DNA of 64,000 bases. It comes from Patescibacteria group bacterium (lineage in GTDB: Bacteria > Patescibacteriota > Minisyncoccia > JAHIHE01 > JAGLIN01). The stretch covers positions 14,885 through 78,884 of the forward strand of contig JAHYJV010000001.1 of assembly GCA_019428855.1 (NCBI GenBank), in the 5' to 3' direction. The notes beneath the pieces are model-generated. The model was not told where the DNA came from and ran no database searches. It saw only the letters and a program-made list of their open reading frames with translations. Shown piece after piece: positions 6,687 to 29,550 of the stretch. The position numbers were made by a program, and so were the translations under genes. The stretch's first letter is position 1. The number at the start of each line of letters is the position of its first letter.

Positions 6687-7797
6687 ATGAAAGAAACAGT
6701 TGAAAAAATTCAAGATTTAAAAAAGAGGGCCCTCCTGGTGAGGGAATGTCTTTGACTTGAATCGAAAGAAAGCGGAGATTGTTGGACTGGAAGCGGAAGT
6801 TAATGAGACTGGATTTTGGAGTGACACCAGGAAAGCAAAAAGGGTTATGCAGAAATTAGATAGTTATCGAGAAATAGTAGGTTTTTGGGATGATATTGAA
6901 AAAAGAATCGATGATTTAGAAGAGATTTTGAACATAATTGATGAAAAAAAAGATAAGGAAGTTCTTCGGGATGCAAAGGAAAGGCTTACTTTTTTGGAAA
7001 AAACATTTATAGAACACGAATTTGAGGCTTTGATGAGTGGTAAATATGACAGTGCGAGTGCAATTATGGCAATTCACAGCGGAGCAGGTGGGGTTGATGC
7101 ACAGGATTGGTCAGAAATGGTTTTGCGAATGTATTTGCGTTATGCAGAAAATCATAAATATAAAACATCTATAGTAAGTATATCAATAGGAGAAGAAGCT
7201 GGAATTAAGAGCGTGACATTTATAGTTACTGGGCCGTTTGCTTATGGACATTTGAAAAATGAAGCTGGGGTGCATAGATTAGTGAGACTCTCACCGTTTA
7301 ATTCTGATAATTTGCGTCAAACTTCATTTGCTCTAGTGGAAGTGTTGCCAGAAATTGAATCTGATGACGAAGTGAAGATTAATGATGATGATTTGAAAAT
7401 TAATACATTCCGGGCAAGTGGAGCAGGCGGTCAGCATGTCAATAAAACAGATTCAGCCGTTCGTATTACTCATCTTCCGACAAAGACAGTAGTAGAATGT
7501 CAAAACGAAAGAAGTCAGTCACAAAACAAGGAAAGTGCCATGCGAGTTTTGAAGGCAAAATTATATAAGTTACAACAAGAAAAAGAAGAAGCAGAAAAGA
7601 AAGAGCTGCGCGGAGAATATACTTCGGCAGAATGGGGAAATCAGATTAGGTCATATGTTCTTCATCCCTATAAACTTGTCAAAGACCACCGCACTGGAGT
7701 TGAAAATAAGGACACAGAAAAAGTTCTTGAGGGAGACATTAATCGATTTATAGAAGCGAGGCTGAAGGGGGTTGTGGAGAGAGGGGATAGGAAGTAG
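6687..7797 (+). CDS. prfB: Peptide chain release factor 2, including the 22-codon leader and a programmed +1 frameshift
   Basis: The main ORF (track 6757-7797) has GGQ (SGAGGQHVN) and SPF motifs. The upstream ATG at 6687 gives the leader MKETVEKIQDLKKRALLVRECL, which ends at CTT TGA C. Confidence 0.85.
6738..6757 (+). promoter_or_regulatory. RF2 +1 frameshift site: internal SD-like GGTGAGGG, then CTT-TGA-C
   Basis: This is the canonical autoregulatory recoding motif. By my hand count the register is uncertain by 1 nt. Confidence 0.6.
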
Positions 7798-8084
7798 GAT
7801 TTGTCATTACTTAAATACAAGATTATGGATTCATGGTCTCGCGGGATCTTGGATGGCTAAATAGAATTTTTATTTTATAGAGAAAAGATCCCGTTGTCAT
7901 TCCGTACGCAGAGAAAAGAAGTTGAGGAATAGCTCTTTTTTTCAGTTATCATATAAATACTAATTTTTAAACTGGTCATTACCGCGGAGCAAGAATGACA
8001 ATTAAAGTCTAGGGTTAATAAGAAAGCTGTAAATGACAATCTGAAATATAATAAATAACTTTATTAAAAACTAATTTTAAACAT

Positions 8085-8549
8085 ATGACAAAAAAAAATA
8101 TCAAGAAGGTAGAAAAAATGGAAATTAAGAAGGATATGCCACAGGACCACTACTATACAAATTCAACACAATTACCAGTTAATTATACTGATGATTTATT
8201 TGAAGCAGTTGATTTACAAAATCCTTTGCAAACAAAATATACAGGTGGAACTGTGATGCATGCTTTTTTAGGTGAAAGATTGCCAAGTGGAAAAGAAGCA
8301 AAGCTGTTGGTAAAAAAAATATTTGAAAAATCTCAAATGCCATATCTTTCTCTTACTCCAACTTTTAGTGTTTGCCCAAATCATGGTTATCTTTCTGGTG
8401 AACATTTCACTTGTCCAAAATGCCTAATTGAACAACCTTGCGAAGTTTATTCAAGAGTAGTGGGATATTTGCGTCCTGTTCAACAATGGAATAAGGGAAA
8501 AGTTTCCGAATATGCGAGAAGAAAAGTATTTAAGGCTAAAATAAAATAA
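8085..8549 (+). CDS. Stand-alone NrdD C-terminal domain protein (glycyl-radical loop + Zn ribbon), copy 1
   Basis: YYTNSTQLPVNY...YTGGTVMHAFLGE...LTPTFSVCPNHGY...CPKC...YSRVVGYLRPVQQWNKGKVSEYARRKVF matches the C-terminal ~150 aa of anaerobic ribonucleoside-triphosphate reductase, including the RVxGY glycyl-radical motif. Confidence 0.8.
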   Translation: MTKKNIKKVEKMEIKKDMPQDHYYTNSTQLPVNYTDDLFEAVDLQNPLQTKYTGGTVMHAFLGERLPSGKEAKLLVKKIFEKSQMPYLSLTPTFSVCPNHGYLSGEHFTCPKCLIEQPCEVYSRVVGYLRPVQQWNKGKVSEYARRKVFKAKIK

Positions 8550-8673
8550 GATTGTTCAAGATTAACATTACCGCGGAGCAAGAATGACAATTAAAGTCTA
8601 GGGTTAATAAGAAAGCTGTAAATGACAATCTGAAATATAATAAATAACTTTATTAAAAACTAATTTTAAACAT

Positions 8674-9138
8674 ATGACAAAAAAAAATATCAAGAAGGTA
8701 GAAAAAATGGAAATTAAGAAGGATATGCCACAGGACCACTACTATACAAATTCAACACAATTACCAGTTAATTATACTGATGATTTATTTGAAGCAGTTG
8801 ATTTACAAAATCCTTTGCAAACAAAATATACAGGTGGAACTGTGATGCATGCTTTTTTAGGTGAAAGATTGCCAAGTGGAAAAGAAGCAAAGCTGTTGGT
8901 AAAAAAAATATTTGAAAAATCTCAAATGCCATATCTTTCTCTTACTCCAACTTTTAGTGTTTGCCCAAATCATGGTTATCTTTCTGGTGAACATTTCACT
9001 TGTCCAAAATGCCTAATTGAACAACCTTGCGAAGTTTATTCAAGAGTAGTGGGATATTTGCGTCCTGTTCAACAATGGAATAAGGGAAAAGTTTCCGAAT
9101 ATGCGAGAAGAAAAGTATTTAAGGCTAAAATAAAATAA
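8674..9138 (+). CDS. Stand-alone NrdD C-terminal domain protein, copy 2 (identical)
   Basis: The translation is identical to the ORF at 8085-8549. Confidence 0.8.
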   Translation: MTKKNIKKVEKMEIKKDMPQDHYYTNSTQLPVNYTDDLFEAVDLQNPLQTKYTGGTVMHAFLGERLPSGKEAKLLVKKIFEKSQMPYLSLTPTFSVCPNHGYLSGEHFTCPKCLIEQPCEVYSRVVGYLRPVQQWNKGKVSEYARRKVFKAKIK

Positions 9139-9308
9139 GATTGTTCAAGATTAACATTACCGATCAGGAATTTCAATATTTTGTTTTCAAATGTCTCAGA
9201 GACCCTAGAGCCTCTAGAGACATTGAGGTGCAAAAATGTGAAGCTTGTTTTGAGTTTTGCTGAATGTTTGAAACAGCGATGATTAATGTATGTAATTAAT
9301 ATAATTAA

Positions 9309-10004
9309 ATGAACCAGATAATGATTGAATTCGAAAATGTATCAAAAATATATAATGAAAATAGCTTTGCCCTGAAAGATATTAATTTTCAGATTGTTAA
9401 AGGAGAATTTGTTTCAATCGTTGGTCAAAGTGGTGCGGGAAAATCTACACTTTTGAAAATGGTTTTTGCAGAGGAAAATCCGACAGAAGGAAATATTTTA
9501 ATTAAGGGCAGAAACATAAGCAAAATCAAGAGTAACAAAATGCCGGTTTTGAGAAGGCACATTGGTGTTGTTTTTCAGGATTTCAAATTGCTATATGGGA
9601 AAACAGTTTTTGAAAATGTTGCTTTTGCTATGGAGGTTTCTGGAAAAACGGACAAAGAAATTAGAGAAGATGTTCCTCAAGTCTTGGAAATTGTAGGATT
9701 AGCAAGCAAGGTTGATAGTTATATAGATGAACTATCTGGTGGAGAAAGACAGAGAGTCTCAATTGCTAGAGCGTTGGTTCACAGACCAGACATTATTATT
9801 GCGGATGAGCCGACTGGAAATCTTGACCTTGTTAATACTTGGGATATAGTGCAACTTTTGATGAAAATTAATCAATACGGAACTACTATCGTTTTGGCCA
9901 CACATAATAGGGAGATTGTAAATTTAATAAACAAAAGAGTAATTACGATTGAAAAAGGAAGAATATCAAGAGATCAACACGATAATGGAAAATATCTAAT
10001 ATAA
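9309..10004 (+). CDS. ftsE: Cell-division ABC ATPase FtsE
   Basis: Walker A GQSGAGKST, signature LSGGERQRVSIARAL, Walker [13 protein letters not shown]. It lies adjacent to ftsX. Confidence 0.85.
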   Translation: MNQIMIEFENVSKIYNENSFALKDINFQIVKGEFVSIVGQSGAGKSTLLKMVFAEENPTEGNILIKGRNISKIKSNKMPVLRRHIGVVFQDFKLLYGKTVFENVAFAMEVSGKTDKEIREDVPQVLEIVGLASKVDSYIDELSGGERQRVSIARALVHRPDIIIADEPTGNLDLVNTWDIVQLLMKINQYGTTIVLATHNREIVNLINKRVITIEKGRISRDQHDNGKYLI

Positions 10005-10051
10005 AAAAAGAAAATAAATTTAATAAATACAACTATAATTGAATTATCTCA

Positions 10052-10975
10052 ATGAAAAGATTGATTGTTACAAATTTTAAAAGAGTTTCGAAATCTGCTA
10101 TTAAGGATTTGACTCGCAACCTCTGGTTGAATATGGCAACAGTTATCATCGTAGTCATCGCTCTATTTACTATTACAACGATGCTGGCGATTGATGCGGT
10201 TGGTAATCATGCACTTCTGTCTTTGCAAGAAAAAATTGATATATCTATCCAGTTTGATGATGATGCCGAAGAATATAAAATATTAGAATTTAAAAAAGAC
10301 TTGGAGAATTTAGAGGAAGTGAAAAGTGTTTCATATATCTCCAAGGAGCAAGCTTTAATTAATTTCAGAGAAACTCACAAGGACAATGCATATGTAAATC
10401 AGTCAATTGATGAGTTGGGAGAGAATCCATTGTTTGCAGTTTTAAATTTAAAGTCAGCACAAATTACTCAATATAGTGCAATTAATGAATATATTCTTGG
10501 AAATGATAATTACCAAGATATAATTGAAAAAGTAAATTATAAAGAAAACGAAAAAGCGATTGAAAATCTTTCCAAGATATTGGCTACGATTAAAGATGGA
10601 ATTTTTGCTTTAACGGTTTTGTTTATTTTTATAAGTATCTTAATTGCATTTAATACAATTCGTCTAGCATTATATTCTCACAAAATGGAAATCGAGATTA
10701 TGCGTTTAGTTGGCGCGAGTAACTGGTATATTAGAATGCCATTCGTAATTGAGGGTGCTATATTAGGTGCAATTAGTTGTTTGATAACCCTCGCGATTAT
10801 ATCTCCTGCGGCCGTCTATGTTTCTCCAAGGATTACTCAATTTTTACCAGAATTTGATTTATATATTTATTTTATGGATAATTTTCTCAGTATCTCTGCC
10901 TTACTAGCCTTAATTGGAATCGGGATGGGAGTGTTTAGTAGTTTGATTGCAATTAGGAGATATTTAAAAGCATAG
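10052..10975 (+). CDS. ftsX: Cell-division permease-like protein FtsX
   Basis: N-terminal TM helix, a large extracytoplasmic loop, three C-terminal TM helices, and a position immediately downstream of ftsE. Confidence 0.8.
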   Translation: MKRLIVTNFKRVSKSAIKDLTRNLWLNMATVIIVVIALFTITTMLAIDAVGNHALLSLQEKIDISIQFDDDAEEYKILEFKKDLENLEEVKSVSYISKEQALINFRETHKDNAYVNQSIDELGENPLFAVLNLKSAQITQYSAINEYILGNDNYQDIIEKVNYKENEKAIENLSKILATIKDGIFALTVLFIFISILIAFNTIRLALYSHKMEIEIMRLVGASNWYIRMPFVIEGAILGAISCLITLAIISPAAVYVSPRITQFLPEFDLYIYFMDNFLSISALLALIGIGMGVFSSLIAIRRYLKA

Positions 10976-21998: not shown

Positions 21999-22395
21999 TG
22001 GTGGAGATGGCGGGAATTGAACCCGCGTCTAGTAAATCCATTTAAAAATCATCTACCAATATATGCCGTTCTTTGGGGTTTAAAATTTATAAGCAATGAA
22101 CGACCAAGACCTCATAAATTCGATTCTGACTAAATTTTCAGATTTTTGCGGTAAGAAATCACAAAGTCCTATCTTGATGTATAACACCGAAGTTTTGCCT
22201 ATCAAGATTTGGCAAATCGATGGCTACCGGTCTATTAGACAGTAGCAGTCGCAAATGTAGGAACTCTAAATAGAGAAGCTACTTTGCTTACAAGTGATTC
22301 TGCACTTATATTTTTCTGATAATTTTTACGAGATTAACCAGAATGCTCGATTGGCAATTTTCAAATTAAGATTCCTATCGAATCTAAACATCCCC
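21999..22395 (-). ncRNA. ssrA: tmRNA (SsrA)
   Basis: 5' GGGGATG pairs with 3' CATCTCC-ACCA and includes the G3-U70 wobble. The T-arm GCGGG-TTCAATT-CCCGC precedes the CCA end. An internal tag frame starts at GCA near nt 93 and ends in tandem stops TAA TAG. smpB lies immediately upstream. Confidence 0.85.
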
Positions 22396-22443: not shown

Positions 22444-22890
22444 TTATTTTTCTCGTAAAGCTCTTTTCATACTCACTTCAGCCTCTCTTTTTTTGATATC
22501 TTCTCGCTTGTCAATTTTCTTTTTTCCCTTACCAACACCAAACTCAAGCTTTATAAGCCCGCGAGTAGAGTATACTCTAATTGGTACTAATGTCAACCCT
22601 TTTTGGCTAATTTTTCCAAGTAGAGATTTGATTTCTTTTTTATGGATGAGAACCTTCCTAGATTGATTGGGGTCGTATTCTGGTGGCATATTTTTTACTT
22701 GATAGGCTGGGATATTGGCATTTGTTAAAAATGCTTCATTTTCATGAATTGTGACGAATGCTCCTTTAAGACTAATGTGTCCAGTTTTAATTGATTTAAC
22801 TTCATATCCAGCTAATACTAACCCACCTTCTAGTTTTTCTAGAATTTCATAATCAAAATTGACTCGTTTATTAATAGCGTATGTTGGCAT
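22444..22890 (-). CDS. smpB: SsrA-binding protein
   Basis: MPTYAINKRVNFDYEILEKLEGGLVLAGYEVKS... Confidence 0.9.
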   Translation of the reverse strand: MPTYAINKRVNFDYEILEKLEGGLVLAGYEVKSIKTGHISLKGAFVTIHENEAFLTNANIPAYQVKNMPPEYDPNQSRKVLIHKKEIKSLLGKISQKGLTLVPIRVYSTRGLIKLEFGVGKGKKKIDKREDIKKREAEVSMKRALREK

Positions 22891-25713: not shown

Positions 25714-28700
25714 ATGTTTAAAAAGGTAAATCCGAGGCAGAATTTTCCAGAGATGGAGAAGGATGTGATGAAATTTTGGGAAGATAATAAAATATTTGAA
25801 AAATCTGTAGAAAATCAGGGTAATAAAAAAACATATAGCTTTTTTGATGGACCTCCGTTTGCGACAGGGCTTCCTCACTATGGACATGTTGTCGCCAGTT
25901 TGATCAAGGATGTTGTACCACGATTTCGGACAATGAAAGGCAACAAAGTGAACCGTAAATGGGGTTGGGATTGTCATGGTTTGCCGATTGAAAATTTGAT
26001 TGAAAAAGAACACGATATCAAAAATAAGCAGGATATTGAAAAGTGGGGGGTTGATAATTTCAATAATACTTGTCATAATTCTGTTTTGCGTTATGCGGAA
26101 GATTGGAAGAAATTTATTCCACGCATGGGTAGATGGGTTGATATGGAAAATGATTATCGCACGATGGATTGGAAATATACGGAAAGTATTTGGTGGGTTT
26201 TTTCCGAGCTTTTCAAAAAAGGACTGGTTTATGAAGGACACAAAGCGATGCATATTTGCCCAAGGTGTGAGACGACGCTTTCTAATTTTGAAGTGACGCA
26301 GGGATATAAGTATATCACAGATTTATCGGCGACAGTGAAGTTTAAGTTGAAAAAAGAGAGCGGAAAATTGTTAAGGGAAAAGATCCTGAATCAAGTTCAG
26401 GATGACAGTGCAAATCAGGATGAAAAAAATCTCAGGGCGAATTTCTCAAATCATAATGATGAAGATGTTTTTTTGTTAGCTTGGACAACAACGCCGTGGA
26501 CTTTACCGGGAAATGTGGCTTTGGCGGTTAGGGAAGATATTGAGTATATAGAAATTGCTGAAAGCATTAAAGGTAGTATAAGTTCAGATAATAAAACATA
26601 TGAGCTTCCTAGTAATGAAAAATATATCATTGCAAAAAAAATCTTTTCAAAAGAAAGTCAAAAACTTGTGACAGATAATGATTTAAGTCAGGTTTATATT
26701 TACGAAGGAAAGAATTATAAAATAATTAAAGAATTTAAAGGTAAAGATTTAGTCGGTTTGGAATATGAACCTTTGTTTGACTATTATTTTCAAAAAGATG
26801 ATTTGGAAAATAAAGATAACGGTTGGAAAATTTATGCTGGTGATTTTGTTTCCACAGATGAAGGAACAGGAGTTGTTCATATTGCACCAGCATTTGGAGA
26901 TGACGATATGAAGATGGGGCAGAAACATAATTTGCCTTTTGTTCAGCATGTTAAAATGAGCGGGAGATTTACAGAGGAAGTGGTTGATTTCAAGGATAAA
27001 GATGGAGGAAATGCGGAAGTAAAACCTAAGGGAGTGGCTGGCGAAAAAGATGCAAACATGAAGACTGATATTGAAATTATCAAATATTTAGCACATCATA
27101 ATTTTCTGTTTTCAAAGAAAAAATATGAACATAGTTATCCTCATTGTTGGAGATGTGATACGCCGCTTTTGAATTATGCGACGAGTTCTTGGTTTGTGAA
27201 GGTGACGGAAATTAAAGATCAAATGGTGACAAATAACAAACAAGTAAACTGGACTCCGGAATATATTAAGGAGGGGAGATTTGGAAAGTGGCTGGAAGAT
27301 GCGCGCGATTGGGCAATTTCACGAAACCGATTTTGGGGAGCTCCGCTACCAATTTGGAAGTGCTCAGATTGTGAGAATGTTGAAGTTGTGAATTCGATTG
27401 ATGAACTTCGAGAAAAAACAGAGGAGAAAATCACCAAGTTTATTTTTGTCAGACATGGGGAAAGTGAAAGTAATTTAAATAATACGAAAGTAAGTCAAAT
27501 AAATGATTATCCATTGACGAACAAAGGCATTGAACAGTCGAAAAATATTGCAAAAATATTAAGTGACGAAAAGATTGATATCATCATTTCTTCTCCTATA
27601 CTCAGAACAAAACAGACCGCTGATATTATCAATGAGGTTTTAAATATTGAGAGAATTGAAGATGATAGAATCAAGGAATATGAATATGGGTCTTGGAACG
27701 GTCATAGCAGTGAGGAATTGTTTTGTGAAAAGAATGAAATATATCAAAATTATAAAAAGATGGAGGGTCCCGAAGAAAAATGGCATTTTAAATTTGGGGG
27801 AGACGGCGAGTCAAGGCTTGAAGTTGAAAAGAGAGTGCGGATTTTTATGGAAGAAATTAACAAAAAATATGCGGGTCAGAATATATTAGTTGTCAGCCAT
27901 GGCGGAGTCAATGCAATGCTTGTCAAGATTTTTGAGAATTTATCAATCAAGGAAACATACAAACATGAGTTTATCGGTCATGCAGAAAAAAGTGTTTTTT
28001 ATGCAAACAGTGAAGGAAAAAAATTTGACCTTCATAAACCAAATATTGATGGAGTAAAAATTAAATGTTCTGCTTGTGGTAGTGAGGCAAAAATCGTCGG
28101 TGATGTATTTGATTGTTGGTTTGAATCTGGTTCAATGCCTTATGCTCAGTGGCACTATCCATTTGAAAACAAGGATGAATTTGAAAAAAATTTTCCAGCA
28201 GATTTTATTGCGGAAGGGTTGGATCAAACGCGAGGTTGGTTCTATACTTTGATGGTGCTTTCGACGGCACTTTTTGACAAAGCTCCATTTAATAATGTGA
28301 TTGTGAATGGTATGGTCCTAGCCGAAGATGGGCAGAAAATGAGCAAGAGATTACAGAACTATCCCGAGCCTAATTTGGTAATCGAAAAATATGGAGCTGA
28401 TGCTTTGCGATATTATCTTTTGTCTTCACCGGTGATGAAAGGGGAGAGTTTGCGATTTTCAGAAAAGGGAGTTGATGAAGTTCTGAAGAAGTTTATTTTG
28501 ACGCTTTGGAATACCTATTCATTTTTGGTGATGAATGTGGACGAAGAGATCTTTCTTCGCCAAGCTCAGAATGACAAAGTATATTTAAAATCTGAAAATC
28601 TACTTGATCAGTGGATTATTTCAGAATTCAATATTTTAATTGGAGAGGTGAATAAGGAAATGGAAAACTATGATTTGGTGCGTGCCACCAGACCATTGCG

Positions 28701-29550
28701 TGAGTTTATAGAGAAGCTTTCCAATTGGTATGTTCGTCGAAGTAGAAAAAGATTTGCGTCAGAAAATGTTAATGATCGGAATTTTGCCCAGCAAACTTTA
28801 TATTATGTTCTGAGCGAATATGCGAAATTGTTAGCGCCATTTATGCCATTTTTATCTGAAGAAATATATCGAAATTTAACTGACAAAGAGTCTGTTCATC
28901 TGTCGGATTATCCCATTTCTAATCAAGATTTAATCAATGAAAAAGTAAGCGGTGAAATGAATTTTATTAGACAGGTGATTTCGCTGGGCTTGGCGATTCG
29001 TGCCAAGAATGCAATTAAGGTCAGAATGCCTCTGGCTACTTTACAAATTCAAAGTGAAAAATCGAAATTGGAAAATAAAGAATTAATGAATTTGATAAAG
29101 GAAGAATTAAATGTGAAGGCCGTTGAGTTTGTTGAATCTTTGCAAAAAGGATCTACTCAAGAGAATGGAGCAGACGAAGGTGGCTGGGCGATTGCAGAGG
29201 AAGTAGGATTGAAAGTGGCACTTGATTTGAATTTGACGGAAGAATTAAAAAATGAAGGATTGGCCAGAGAGTTAGTTCGACATATTCAAGTGATGAGAAA
29301 AGAGGCAAAATTTAATCGAGAGGATTTGATTTTTATTGAATACAGCTTTATAAAAGAAAGCAAGGGAGTGGAGAAAGCTTTTGAAAGCTGGAAAGATTGT
29401 ATCAAAAAAGAGTGTTTGGCAAAAACTATGAAATTCAAAGAAGTAATTGAAAGTGAAAATTTTGATTCAGTGAAAGAATTGAAGGTGGGGGAGTCTGTGG
29501 TTAAAGTTGGGGTTAAAAAATATAATAAAAAAGAAAGGAAGATTTTATAA
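25714..29550 (+). CDS. ileS: Isoleucyl-tRNA synthetase with an embedded histidine-phosphatase domain
   Basis: HIGH (PHYGHVV), WAISRNRFWGAPLPIW and KMSKS (KMSKR) motifs. At 1278 aa it is about 200 aa longer than typical IleRS because of an insert between the WKCSDC and CSACGS zinc-knuckle halves. Confidence 0.9.
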   Translation: MFKKVNPRQNFPEMEKDVMKFWEDNKIFEKSVENQGNKKTYSFFDGPPFATGLPHYGHVVASLIKDVVPRFRTMKGNKVNRKWGWDCHGLPIENLIEKEHDIKNKQDIEKWGVDNFNNTCHNSVLRYAEDWKKFIPRMGRWVDMENDYRTMDWKYTESIWWVFSELFKKGLVYEGHKAMHICPRCETTLSNFEVTQGYKYITDLSATVKFKLKKESGKLLREKILNQVQDDSANQDEKNLRANFSNHNDEDVFLLAWTTTPWTLPGNVALAVREDIEYIEIAESIKGSISSDNKTYELPSNEKYIIAKKIFSKESQKLVTDNDLSQVYIYEGKNYKIIKEFKGKDLVGLEYEPLFDYYFQKDDLENKDNGWKIYAGDFVSTDEGTGVVHIAPAFGDDDMKMGQKHNLPFVQHVKMSGRFTEEVVDFKDKDGGNAEVKPKGVAGEKDANMKTDIEIIKYLAHHNFLFSKKKYEHSYPHCWRCDTPLLNYATSSWFVKVTEIKDQMVTNNKQVNWTPEYIKEGRFGKWLEDARDWAISRNRFWGAPLPIWKCSDCENVEVVNSIDELREKTEEKITKFIFVRHGESESNLNNTKVSQINDYPLTNKGIEQSKNIAKILSDEKIDIIISSPILRTKQTADIINEVLNIERIEDDRIKEYEYGSWNGHSSEELFCEKNEIYQNYKKMEGPEEKWHFKFGGDGESRLEVEKRVRIFMEEINKKYAGQNILVVSHGGVNAMLVKIFENLSIKETYKHEFIGHAEKSVFYANSEGKKFDLHKPNIDGVKIKCSACGSEAKIVGDVFDCWFESGSMPYAQWHYPFENKDEFEKNFPADFIAEGLDQTRGWFYTLMVLSTALFDKAPFNNVIVNGMVLAEDGQKMSKRLQNYPEPNLVIEKYGADALRYYLLSSPVMKGESLRFSEKGVDEVLKKFILTLWNTYSFLVMNVDEEIFLRQAQNDKVYLKSENLLDQWIISEFNILIGEVNKEMENYDLVRATRPLREFIEKLSNWYVRRSRKRFASENVNDRNFAQQTLYYVLSEYAKLLAPFMPFLSEEIYRNLTDKESVHLSDYPISNQDLINEKVSGEMNFIRQVISLGLAIRAKNAIKVRMPLATLQIQSEKSKLENKELMNLIKEELNVKAVEFVESLQKGSTQENGADEGGWAIAEEVGLKVALDLNLTEELKNEGLARELVRHIQVMRKEAKFNREDLIFIEYSFIKESKGVEKAFESWKDCIKKECLAKTMKFKEVIESENFDSVKELKVGESVVKVGVKKYNKKERKIL
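27433..28020 (+). other. In-frame histidine-phosphatase (phosphoglycerate-mutase superfamily) domain inserted inside ileS
   Basis: FIFVRHGESESN (RHG catalytic His) ... LVVSHGGVNAM (second His motif). It is flanked by the IleRS segments ..PIWKCSDCENVEVVNSIDELREK and DLHKPNIDGVKIKCSACGS..DVFDCWFESGSMP. Confidence 0.7.

Follow-up and report, generated by a model that had tools for sequence, protein, structure and literature searches.

The known class III ribonucleotide reductases (RNRs), such as those of phage T4 (1H7A), T. maritima (4COI and 4U3E) and P. copri (8P23), consist of the activase NrdG and the catalytic protein NrdD, a single polypeptide of 600-750 amino acids (aa). To our knowledge, in all characterised glycyl radical enzymes the radical glycine resides on the catalytic polypeptide. 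Here we describe a deviation from this organization in a 64,000-nucleotide stretch of Patescibacteria group bacterium DNA (assembly GCA_019428855.1, contig JAHYJV010000001.1, positions 14,885 to 78,884 of the forward strand; hereafter, the window), in which the last ~130 NrdD-homologous residues are encoded by a separate gene, denoted nrdD-C, that is duplicated in this genome. Two groups of described systems are relevant for comparison. First, split RNR genes have been reported in phages, namely, nrdJa/nrdJb in Thermus phage phiYS40 and Synechococcus phage P60, nrdA-a/nrdA-b in Aeromonas phage Aeh1, and a fragmented nrdD in Aeromonas phage phiAS4 (PMC3653736). In these cases, as in the one described here, a catalytic RNR subunit is encoded by two open reading frames (ORFs) whose products have to act jointly; the phage pieces are adjacent, often with an intron, intein or homing endonuclease between them (PMC3653736), whereas here the enzyme is a cellular class III RNR, the cut sets apart the piece with the radical glycine, and the two halves lie at distant sites. 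Second, GrcA/YfiD is, similarly to the nrdD-C product, a small free-standing protein with a glycine radical loop; however, GrcA coexists with a complete pyruvate formate-lyase (PFL) and copies only the glycyl radical domain (GRD), whereas NrdD-C appears to be the sole GRD of its enzyme and additionally includes barrel strands and a zinc ribbon. A June 2026 review of glycyl radical enzymes lists separate small radical (spare-part) proteins only for formate lyases (PMC13450708).

Taken together, the observations make it highly likely that gene fission gave rise to a two-subunit class III RNR, with the radical on the small subunit, NrdD-C, and the large subunit, NrdD-N, encoded elsewhere, in relatives beside nrdG. 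The gene and its predicted catalytic sites are located in the window as follows:

8085..8549, + strand: nrdD-C copy 1, an ATG-started ORF for the 154-aa predicted small subunit of a split class III RNR
8674..9138, + strand: nrdD-C copy 2, identical to copy 1 in DNA and protein
8463..8465 (copy 1) and 9052-9054 (copy 2), + strand: codon of Gly127, the glycyl-radical site predicted by motif alignment (SRVVGYLRP)
8373..8423, + strand: codons of the zinc-ribbon ligands C97, H100, C110 and C113 (C-x2-H-x9-C-x2-C), predicted from the motif

The nrdD-C product consists of a 22-aa lysine-rich leader, the last beta-alpha units of the barrel, a zinc ribbon and the glycyl-radical loop. Residues 11-149 match positions 427-562 of the 562 positions in the Pfam profile PF13597 (NRDD; E=1.7e-47, 162.8 bits against a cutoff of 26.2), and the NCBIfam model NF006126 (NrdD) is matched over positions 548-683 of 684 (E=1.6e-57); by these scores, the match to the NrdD family is far above chance. 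The equivalog cutoff of NF006126 (548 bits) is not reached because three quarters of NrdD are absent from the ORF. The motifs detected are YYTNS (from residue 23), YTGGTVMHAFLGE, LTPTFSVCP..GY, CPKC and SRVVGYLRPVQQWNKGK. In GenBank, the sequence (P0266) is annotated only as a hypothetical protein (K0B03_00115) and is represented, on a contig of 80,963 bp, by two consecutive accessions, MBW6440427.1 and MBW6440428.1; the tandem pair therefore belongs to the deposited metagenome-assembled genome (MAG).

An earlier, sequence-only reading of the locus had described a stand-alone 154-aa NrdD C-terminal ORF at 8085-8549, with its own ATG and intact in both tandem copies; the ORF call, the motifs and the Pfam and NCBIfam matches bear this out, and the two copies are identical. 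The end-to-end alignment with NrdD that it had claimed holds for residues 23-150, to which the NrdD likeness is confined, but not for the first 22 residues, the lineage-specific leader that has no NrdD counterpart. Its equation of the ORF with the GRD plus zinc ribbon is correct insofar as both are present but omits a part of the barrel: nrdD-C aligns with residues 523-644 of the 651-residue T. maritima NrdD (PDB 4COI) and with residues 606-734 of the 743-residue P. copri NrdD (PDB 8P23), in which the core barrel spans residues 123-671 and the GRD residues 676-739 (PMC11226230), so that by these limits the ORF contains ~65 barrel residues (P. copri 606-671) together with the whole GRD. The gene prfB is indeed located upstream, at a distance of 287 bp rather than 290 bp from copy 1, and the absence of an NrdD body upstream extends to the entire 64-kb window, where tblastn with five full-length NrdDs matched the two C-terminal pieces only.

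The Gly127 motif aligns with the loop of Gly621, the reference glycine in T. maritima NrdD (PMC4493059). The predicted zinc ligands resemble those of the T. maritima NrdD ribbon, which is of the Cys-His-Cys-Cys type (CxxxHx6CxxC; PMC4493059). The glycine motif RVxGY and the zinc ligands are invariant across all the stand-alone C-terminal pieces analysed (hereafter, C pieces). An AlphaFold2 model of a full-length relative, P0121, built from 29 sequences, had a mean pLDDT of 59, too low for analysing contacts or searching by fold, and accordingly we use, with caution, only its secondary structure string, which suggests a beta-alpha-beta-alpha-beta arrangement followed by the ribbon and the loop in the region corresponding to the C piece. 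The finger-loop cysteine and the allosteric sites are absent from the nrdD-C ORF and from the window as a whole; these are supplied by a separate protein, P0170.

P0170 (MBW6440516.1) is a 580-aa protein encoded on another contig (67,430 bp), under an accession 88-89 numbers after MBW6440427/8; its organism label and sources match those of the two window proteins. It contains an ATP-cone, matches NRDD positions 1-435 of 562, and carries the sequence SMCCRL, which aligns with the thiyl-radical-cysteine loop of phage T4 NrdD, where this cysteine sits in the loop MGCR (PMC4493059). Hence P0170 (1-435) and nrdD-C (427-562) together tile the NRDD profile, and P0170, as judged from its sequence and accession, is probably the partner gene from the same MAG, ending exactly where nrdD-C begins. 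A truncated nrdD elsewhere in the genome, for which the sequence-only reading had proposed to search, is thus represented by P0170. This protein is one of a large group: with residues 1-587 of L013, the nearest full-length NrdD, as the query, a search yielded ~60 clusters of 573-585-aa proteins with the ATP-cone plus NRDD architecture (73-79% identity; hereafter, N pieces), many of these on long contigs, up to 831 kb. The N pieces terminate at ...YPDIITA plus 2-10 residues and the C pieces open with a leader of 15-25 aa followed by (Y/F)YTNS, whereas the full-length relatives run across the split point as ...YPDIITAG-x(3-12)-YYTNS. With the ATP-cone and the cysteine loop in the partner protein and nrdG beside the partner gene in relatives, the pair retains features of known NrdD/NrdG systems, including membership in the PF13597/NF006126 family, the zinc ribbon and the RVxGY loop. 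In Patescibacteria, the existing labels present the small piece as a hypothetical protein and the 580-aa piece as a complete reductase.

This complementarity bears directly on the proposal of the sequence-only reading that nrdD-C is a spare part of the GrcA/YfiD type, that is, an independently encoded glycyl-radical module standing in for the C-terminus that a full-length NrdD has lost to oxygen cleavage. The small autonomous ORF with intact glycine loop and zinc ribbon, its conservation and its duplication in this genome would all fit such a role, for which PFL provides a precedent (PMC8683613, PMC13450708). However, the NrdD genes of the same MAG and of its relatives lack exactly this region; therefore, there is nothing for NrdD-C to be a spare for, and NrdD-C would be the sole radical domain of the enzyme. 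In addition, nrdD-C includes ~65 barrel residues that oxygen cleavage at the glycine would leave in place; Pfam Gly_radical (PF01228) has no match in nrdD-C at E<=1, and BLASTP of nrdD-C against a manually entered E. coli GrcA sequence produced no alignment. Moreover, lineages that possess a candidate spare part employ a different, GRD-only protein of 86-88 aa beside a full-length nrdD. The spare-part proposal thus appears very unlikely, and nrdD-C is better regarded, on the strength of the gene sequences, as a presumably essential half of the enzyme, neither a spare part nor a dead fragment.

RNR genes often host inteins, so the two products conceivably could be ligated post-translationally into a full-length NrdD by a split intein, all the more so as one of the N pieces (P0181) appears to carry a classical intein. 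A split intein is expected to comprise an N-terminal part (IntN) of ~100 aa and a C-terminal part (IntC) of ~35 aa that ends in His-Asn, with Cys, Ser or Thr as the next residue. The 2-10 aa tail of the N pieces leaves no room for IntN, whereas the leader of the C pieces is short (15-25 aa) and variable, there is no His-Asn at its end, and the residue after it is Tyr or Phe; Pfam detects only NRDD in the C piece and the ATP-cone plus NRDD in P0170, with no intein signature. Trans-splicing of the two products therefore seems exceedingly improbable. The insertion in P0181 (899 aa) is shared with the N pieces P0182, P0187, P0188 and P0191; it spans ~320 aa at VGFQ/C...HN/TPFTN and resembles an endonuclease-containing intein, so that the large subunit itself appears to be an intein host. 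Separately, full-length nrdD ORFs of 1020-1370 aa, compared to the usual ~700 aa, are found in five Patescibacteria loci (L025, L039, L050, L054 and L063), presumably due to inteins or other insertions.

Stand-alone C pieces are widespread among the relatives of this bacterium. A protein search with nrdD-C yielded 2200 matches; in the best 28 clusters among these (clustered at 90% identity), the identity to nrdD-C is 64-94% and all proteins are 114-160 aa long, with several clusters represented on contigs of 20-100 kb. The orthologue with 94% identity (P0002) is present in six independent assemblies, always as a single copy between prfB and ftsE-ftsX. A scan of the GTDB species representatives, with each match extended to its ORF, produced 80 loci. 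The closest of these (75-93% identity) are stand-alone ORFs of 145-172 aa (L007-L012 and L034, plus L014, in which the ORF is interrupted by the contig end), and overall a stand-alone C piece was found in at least 8 species representatives; the more distant loci (56-77% identity) are all C-termini of NrdDs, mostly of ~620-760 aa, with some longer and some cut by contig ends. The stand-alone ORFs that the sequence-only reading had suggested looking for in related genomes are thus conserved in many species. No NrdD body was detected by tblastn within 10 kb of the dispersed C pieces. The arrangement in which the C piece is located between prfB and ftsE-ftsX is found in L001-L006 and L090; in the window, the corresponding neighbours are:

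6757..7797, + strand: prfB, conserved upstream neighbour of nrdD-C (Pfam PCRF and RF-1)
9309..10975, + strand: ftsE-ftsX, conserved downstream neighbours (Pfam ABC_tran, FtsX_ECD and FtsX)

The relationship between the two halves is clearest in a relative for which both are found on one scaffold. In scaffold_1 of ERZ23498665 (831,018 bp, ENA), the C piece (P0245, 156 aa) is located near 799 kb, between prfB and ftsE-ftsX. Near 333 kb, ftsA-ftsZ precede the N piece (P0157, 578 aa), and the next gene encodes a 240-aa Fer4_12/Radical_SAM protein that is NrdG. The two genes are ~465 kb apart, on opposite strands of the record, in contrast to the single gene of known NrdDs. The same N/C pair is present in the MAG GCA_023132875.1, on contigs 3 and 7, and the ftsZ-x-N-nrdG context recurs for a further N piece, P0159. 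No remnant of a C piece was found downstream of the dispersed N pieces. In two other lineages, the two halves are adjacent. In L096 (GCA_017973895.1), the gene order is ybeY, ftsA, ftsZ, the N piece (581 aa), a 32-bp AT-rich spacer and the C piece (153 aa), which starts from a separate ATG, includes a leader and is in a different frame from the N piece. The L097/L098 loci show the succession ftsA, ftsZ, the N piece (608 aa), a 110-bp spacer, the C piece (145 aa) and nrdG. Judging from gene order, these adjacent halves appear to represent the intermediate state.

In a neighbour-joining tree of the C-terminal regions, all dispersed C pieces form one clade, with the full-length L013 as its sister and the two adjacent-split loci just outside, although little weight is given to the branching order in view of the short alignment. 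In the closest full-length NrdDs, L013 (8240-10396) and P0121, the linker at the split point is exceptionally long (ITAQHYNSDSDKFYDPYYTNS, compared to the typical ITAGDKESYYTNS); in the tree, these proteins take the sister position to the dispersed C pieces, within the broader split group. The linker of L013 and its position in the tree may reflect either re-fusion of a once-split gene or independent fissions. The gene arrangements suggest a history that would start from an undivided nrdD flanked by ftsZ and nrdG; this gene would have been split where it stood into two adjacent genes, after which, in the clade that includes the window, nrdD-C would have been relocated to the spacer between prfB and ftsE. 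In this particular genome, nrdD-C and its own upstream region would then have been tandemly duplicated via an 8-nt microhomology, which would double the dosage.

Both halves evolve under strong purifying selection (dN/dS ~0.05). Estimated by the Nei-Gojobori method, the dN/dS ratios of the C pieces are in the range of 0.03 to 0.07, with values of 0.049 for the window and L001 (dS 0.78), 0.063 for the window and L007, and 0.029 for L011 and L012; in more distant pairs, synonymous sites are saturated and dN is at most 0.32. The ratio for the N pieces is 0.048 (L087 and L093), and the C-piece ORF is intact in 10 of the 10 orthologues analysed. The sequence-only reading had offered, as an alternative to the spare part, that the ORF is the surviving 3' portion of an nrdD disrupted by the surrounding repeats, and a related possibility is a functionless remnant of a rearranged nrdD in the process of decay. 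The origin implied by this alternative agrees with the existence elsewhere of a 5' piece that ends where nrdD-C starts, and the hypothetical-protein label in GenBank is compatible with a remnant, but the consequence is different, namely, a conserved fission. The C pieces retain low dN/dS values with dS up to saturation, the ORF is unbroken in every species examined with the catalytic motifs invariant, the synteny and a motif preceding the ATG are conserved, and the N piece is equally constrained and still adjoins nrdG. Thus, a decaying fragment is effectively excluded, and we regard it as highly improbable. Nor do repeats account for the disruption: the only repeat found beside nrdD-C is the tandem duplication, which is not the cause of the split because the single-copy relatives are already split.

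The way in which the two proteins would operate can be outlined from the established chemistry of class III RNRs. NrdD-N (~580 aa) would contribute the ATP-cone, the allosteric sites, most of the 10-stranded barrel and the loop with the thiyl-radical cysteine (SMCCRL), and NrdD-C the last beta-alpha-beta units of the barrel, the zinc ribbon and the glycine loop; the two would join non-covalently, rebuilding the barrel. The radical-SAM (S-adenosylmethionine) activase NrdG would then act in trans, abstracting hydrogen from Gly127 of NrdD-C, and the radical would move to the finger-loop cysteine of NrdD-N, starting each round of NTP reduction. In the published structures, the GRD is mobile and shifts mostly as one rigid body (PMC11226230), which makes a separate GRD polypeptide plausible.

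Several considerations weigh against the two-subunit interpretation. The evidence consists of genes, all from MAGs, and the assignment of P0170 to the same MAG relies on nearby accession numbers and matching source labels. These genomes might encode an additional, full-length NrdD. Furthermore, the split falls inside the barrel, off the domain boundary, so that stable assembly of the subunits is assumed, and the AlphaFold2 model (pLDDT 59) is too poor to provide structural support beyond the secondary structure. An extension of the two-subunit interpretation, which we put forward tentatively and consider unlikely as it stands, is that NrdD-C is a consumable subunit: oxygen would cleave only the 17-kDa NrdD-C, at Gly127, and the body would be replenished with a new small subunit, perhaps one already activated.

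The tandem duplication, which is specific to this genome given that each of the relatives examined has one copy of the C piece, is delineated by the following features:

7977..8565, + strand: duplication unit 1, 589 bp, consisting of 108 nt upstream, the gene and 16 nt downstream
8566..9154, + strand: duplication unit 2, 589 bp, identified by offset self-comparison
9155..9162, + strand: third copy of the 8-nt microhomology CATTACCG, at the duplication junction (the other copies are at 7977-7984 and 8566-8573)
8052..8084, + strand: AT-rich conserved motif TAAATAACTTTATTAAAAACTAATTTTAAACAT right before the ATG, repeated at 8641-8673 before copy 2, identified by alignment

Self-comparison at an offset of 589 shows 100% identity between 7977-8573 and 8566-9162 (597 nt), and the junction reads ...GATTAA|CATTACCGCGG, a novel sequence. 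The identity of the copies, along with the origin of the sequence from a single short-read MAG and the single-copy state in all relatives, raises the concern that copy 2 was created during assembly and that the genome actually contains one nrdD-C; this would affect the duplication but not the split. However, the novel junction is backed by only 8 nt of microhomology, which is below any assembler k-mer, so that junction-spanning reads would have to exist, and duplications by slippage or via microhomology typically leave such a pattern. An assembly artefact therefore seems rather unlikely. Both copies of the duplicated gene are presumably expressed. The alignment shows the 33-nt AT-rich motif before the ATG in the window, L001, L007 and L090; from its position and conservation, this motif is a likely promoter or leader. 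The scan for promoters and terminators yielded counts no higher than those in shuffled controls, and the folding z-score of the region upstream of nrdD-C is 0.12. Rfam searches at the gathering threshold, and at a permissive threshold for 7700-9400, revealed no relevant group I intron or riboswitch near nrdD-C.

In relatives, nrdG directly follows the N piece; it is not in the window, where Pfam scans of 41 ORFs, nrdD-C included, detected neither nrdG or another radical-SAM protein nor any other RNR, the rest being housekeeping genes. Two of the window features are notable in their own right. In a 1278-aa class I aminoacyl-tRNA synthetase (25714-29550, + strand; Pfam tRNA-synt_1 (I/L/M/V) and Anticodon_1), probably IleRS, the catalytic domain is interrupted midway by a complete His_Phos_1 (histidine phosphatase) domain (residues 577-771, E=2.5e-39). 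In addition, a tmRNA gene, detected by Rfam (129.5 bits) and not reported by ARAGORN, adjoins smpB (21999-22395 and 22444-22890, both on the - strand).

Outside the window, five of the loci contain a distinct small ORF (81-88 aa), here denoted mini-GRD, directly downstream of a full-length nrdD:

L062, 10692-10958: mini-GRD ORF
L076, 8094-8354: mini-GRD ORF
L057, 2507-2767: mini-GRD ORF
L053, 4344-4607: mini-GRD ORF
L055, 4480-4725: mini-GRD ORF

In L062 and L076, for which the ORFs were listed, the operon consists of nrdR, nrdD, the mini-GRD ORF and nrdG. The mini-GRD contains a separate CxxC..CxxC ribbon, and its glycine loop differs very little from the one in the adjacent NrdD. The match to Pfam NRDD is limited to positions 510-562, and neither Pfam nor NCBIfam includes a dedicated family for this protein. 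A search with this protein produced 664 matches, and all 120 clusters among those listed are 80-113 aa long, the named ones coming mostly from Moranbacteria; the hosts include Moranbacteria, Komeilibacteria and other Patescibacteria. In L062, 33 of the 40 residues of the loop and tail match the tail of the NrdD from the same genome, whereas at most 17 of the 40 third codon positions do, which argues for selection rather than gene conversion. Like nrdD-C, the mini-GRD is a free-standing NrdD-derived glycine loop with a zinc ribbon from the same superphylum; unlike nrdD-C, it comprises the GRD only, with a ribbon of the CxxC..CxxC type, coexists with a complete NrdD and is absent from the window. 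The mini-GRD can be considered a candidate for a genuine spare part of class III RNR, comparable to GrcA.

We found no description of a dispersed NrdD split in cellular organisms (Patescibacteria) in the literature; our coverage was incomplete, and a prior record, for example, in RNRdb, is possible. As far as can be judged from the genes, a natural, conserved two-piece NrdD implies that the radical domain together with the last barrel strands can serve as a separate subunit. The split NrdD would offer a ready system for the study of NrdG access to the buried glycine, activation before assembly and exchange of a damaged part. The mislabelled halves could cause metabolic reconstructions to misjudge pathway completeness. 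If NrdD-C is indeed consumable, this RNR would possess a built-in spare-part system, the supply of which would be raised by the duplication in this genome, and, as a counterpart to the two-subunit design of class I RNR, it would be the first known glycyl radical enzyme in which the radical is obligatorily on a separate subunit.

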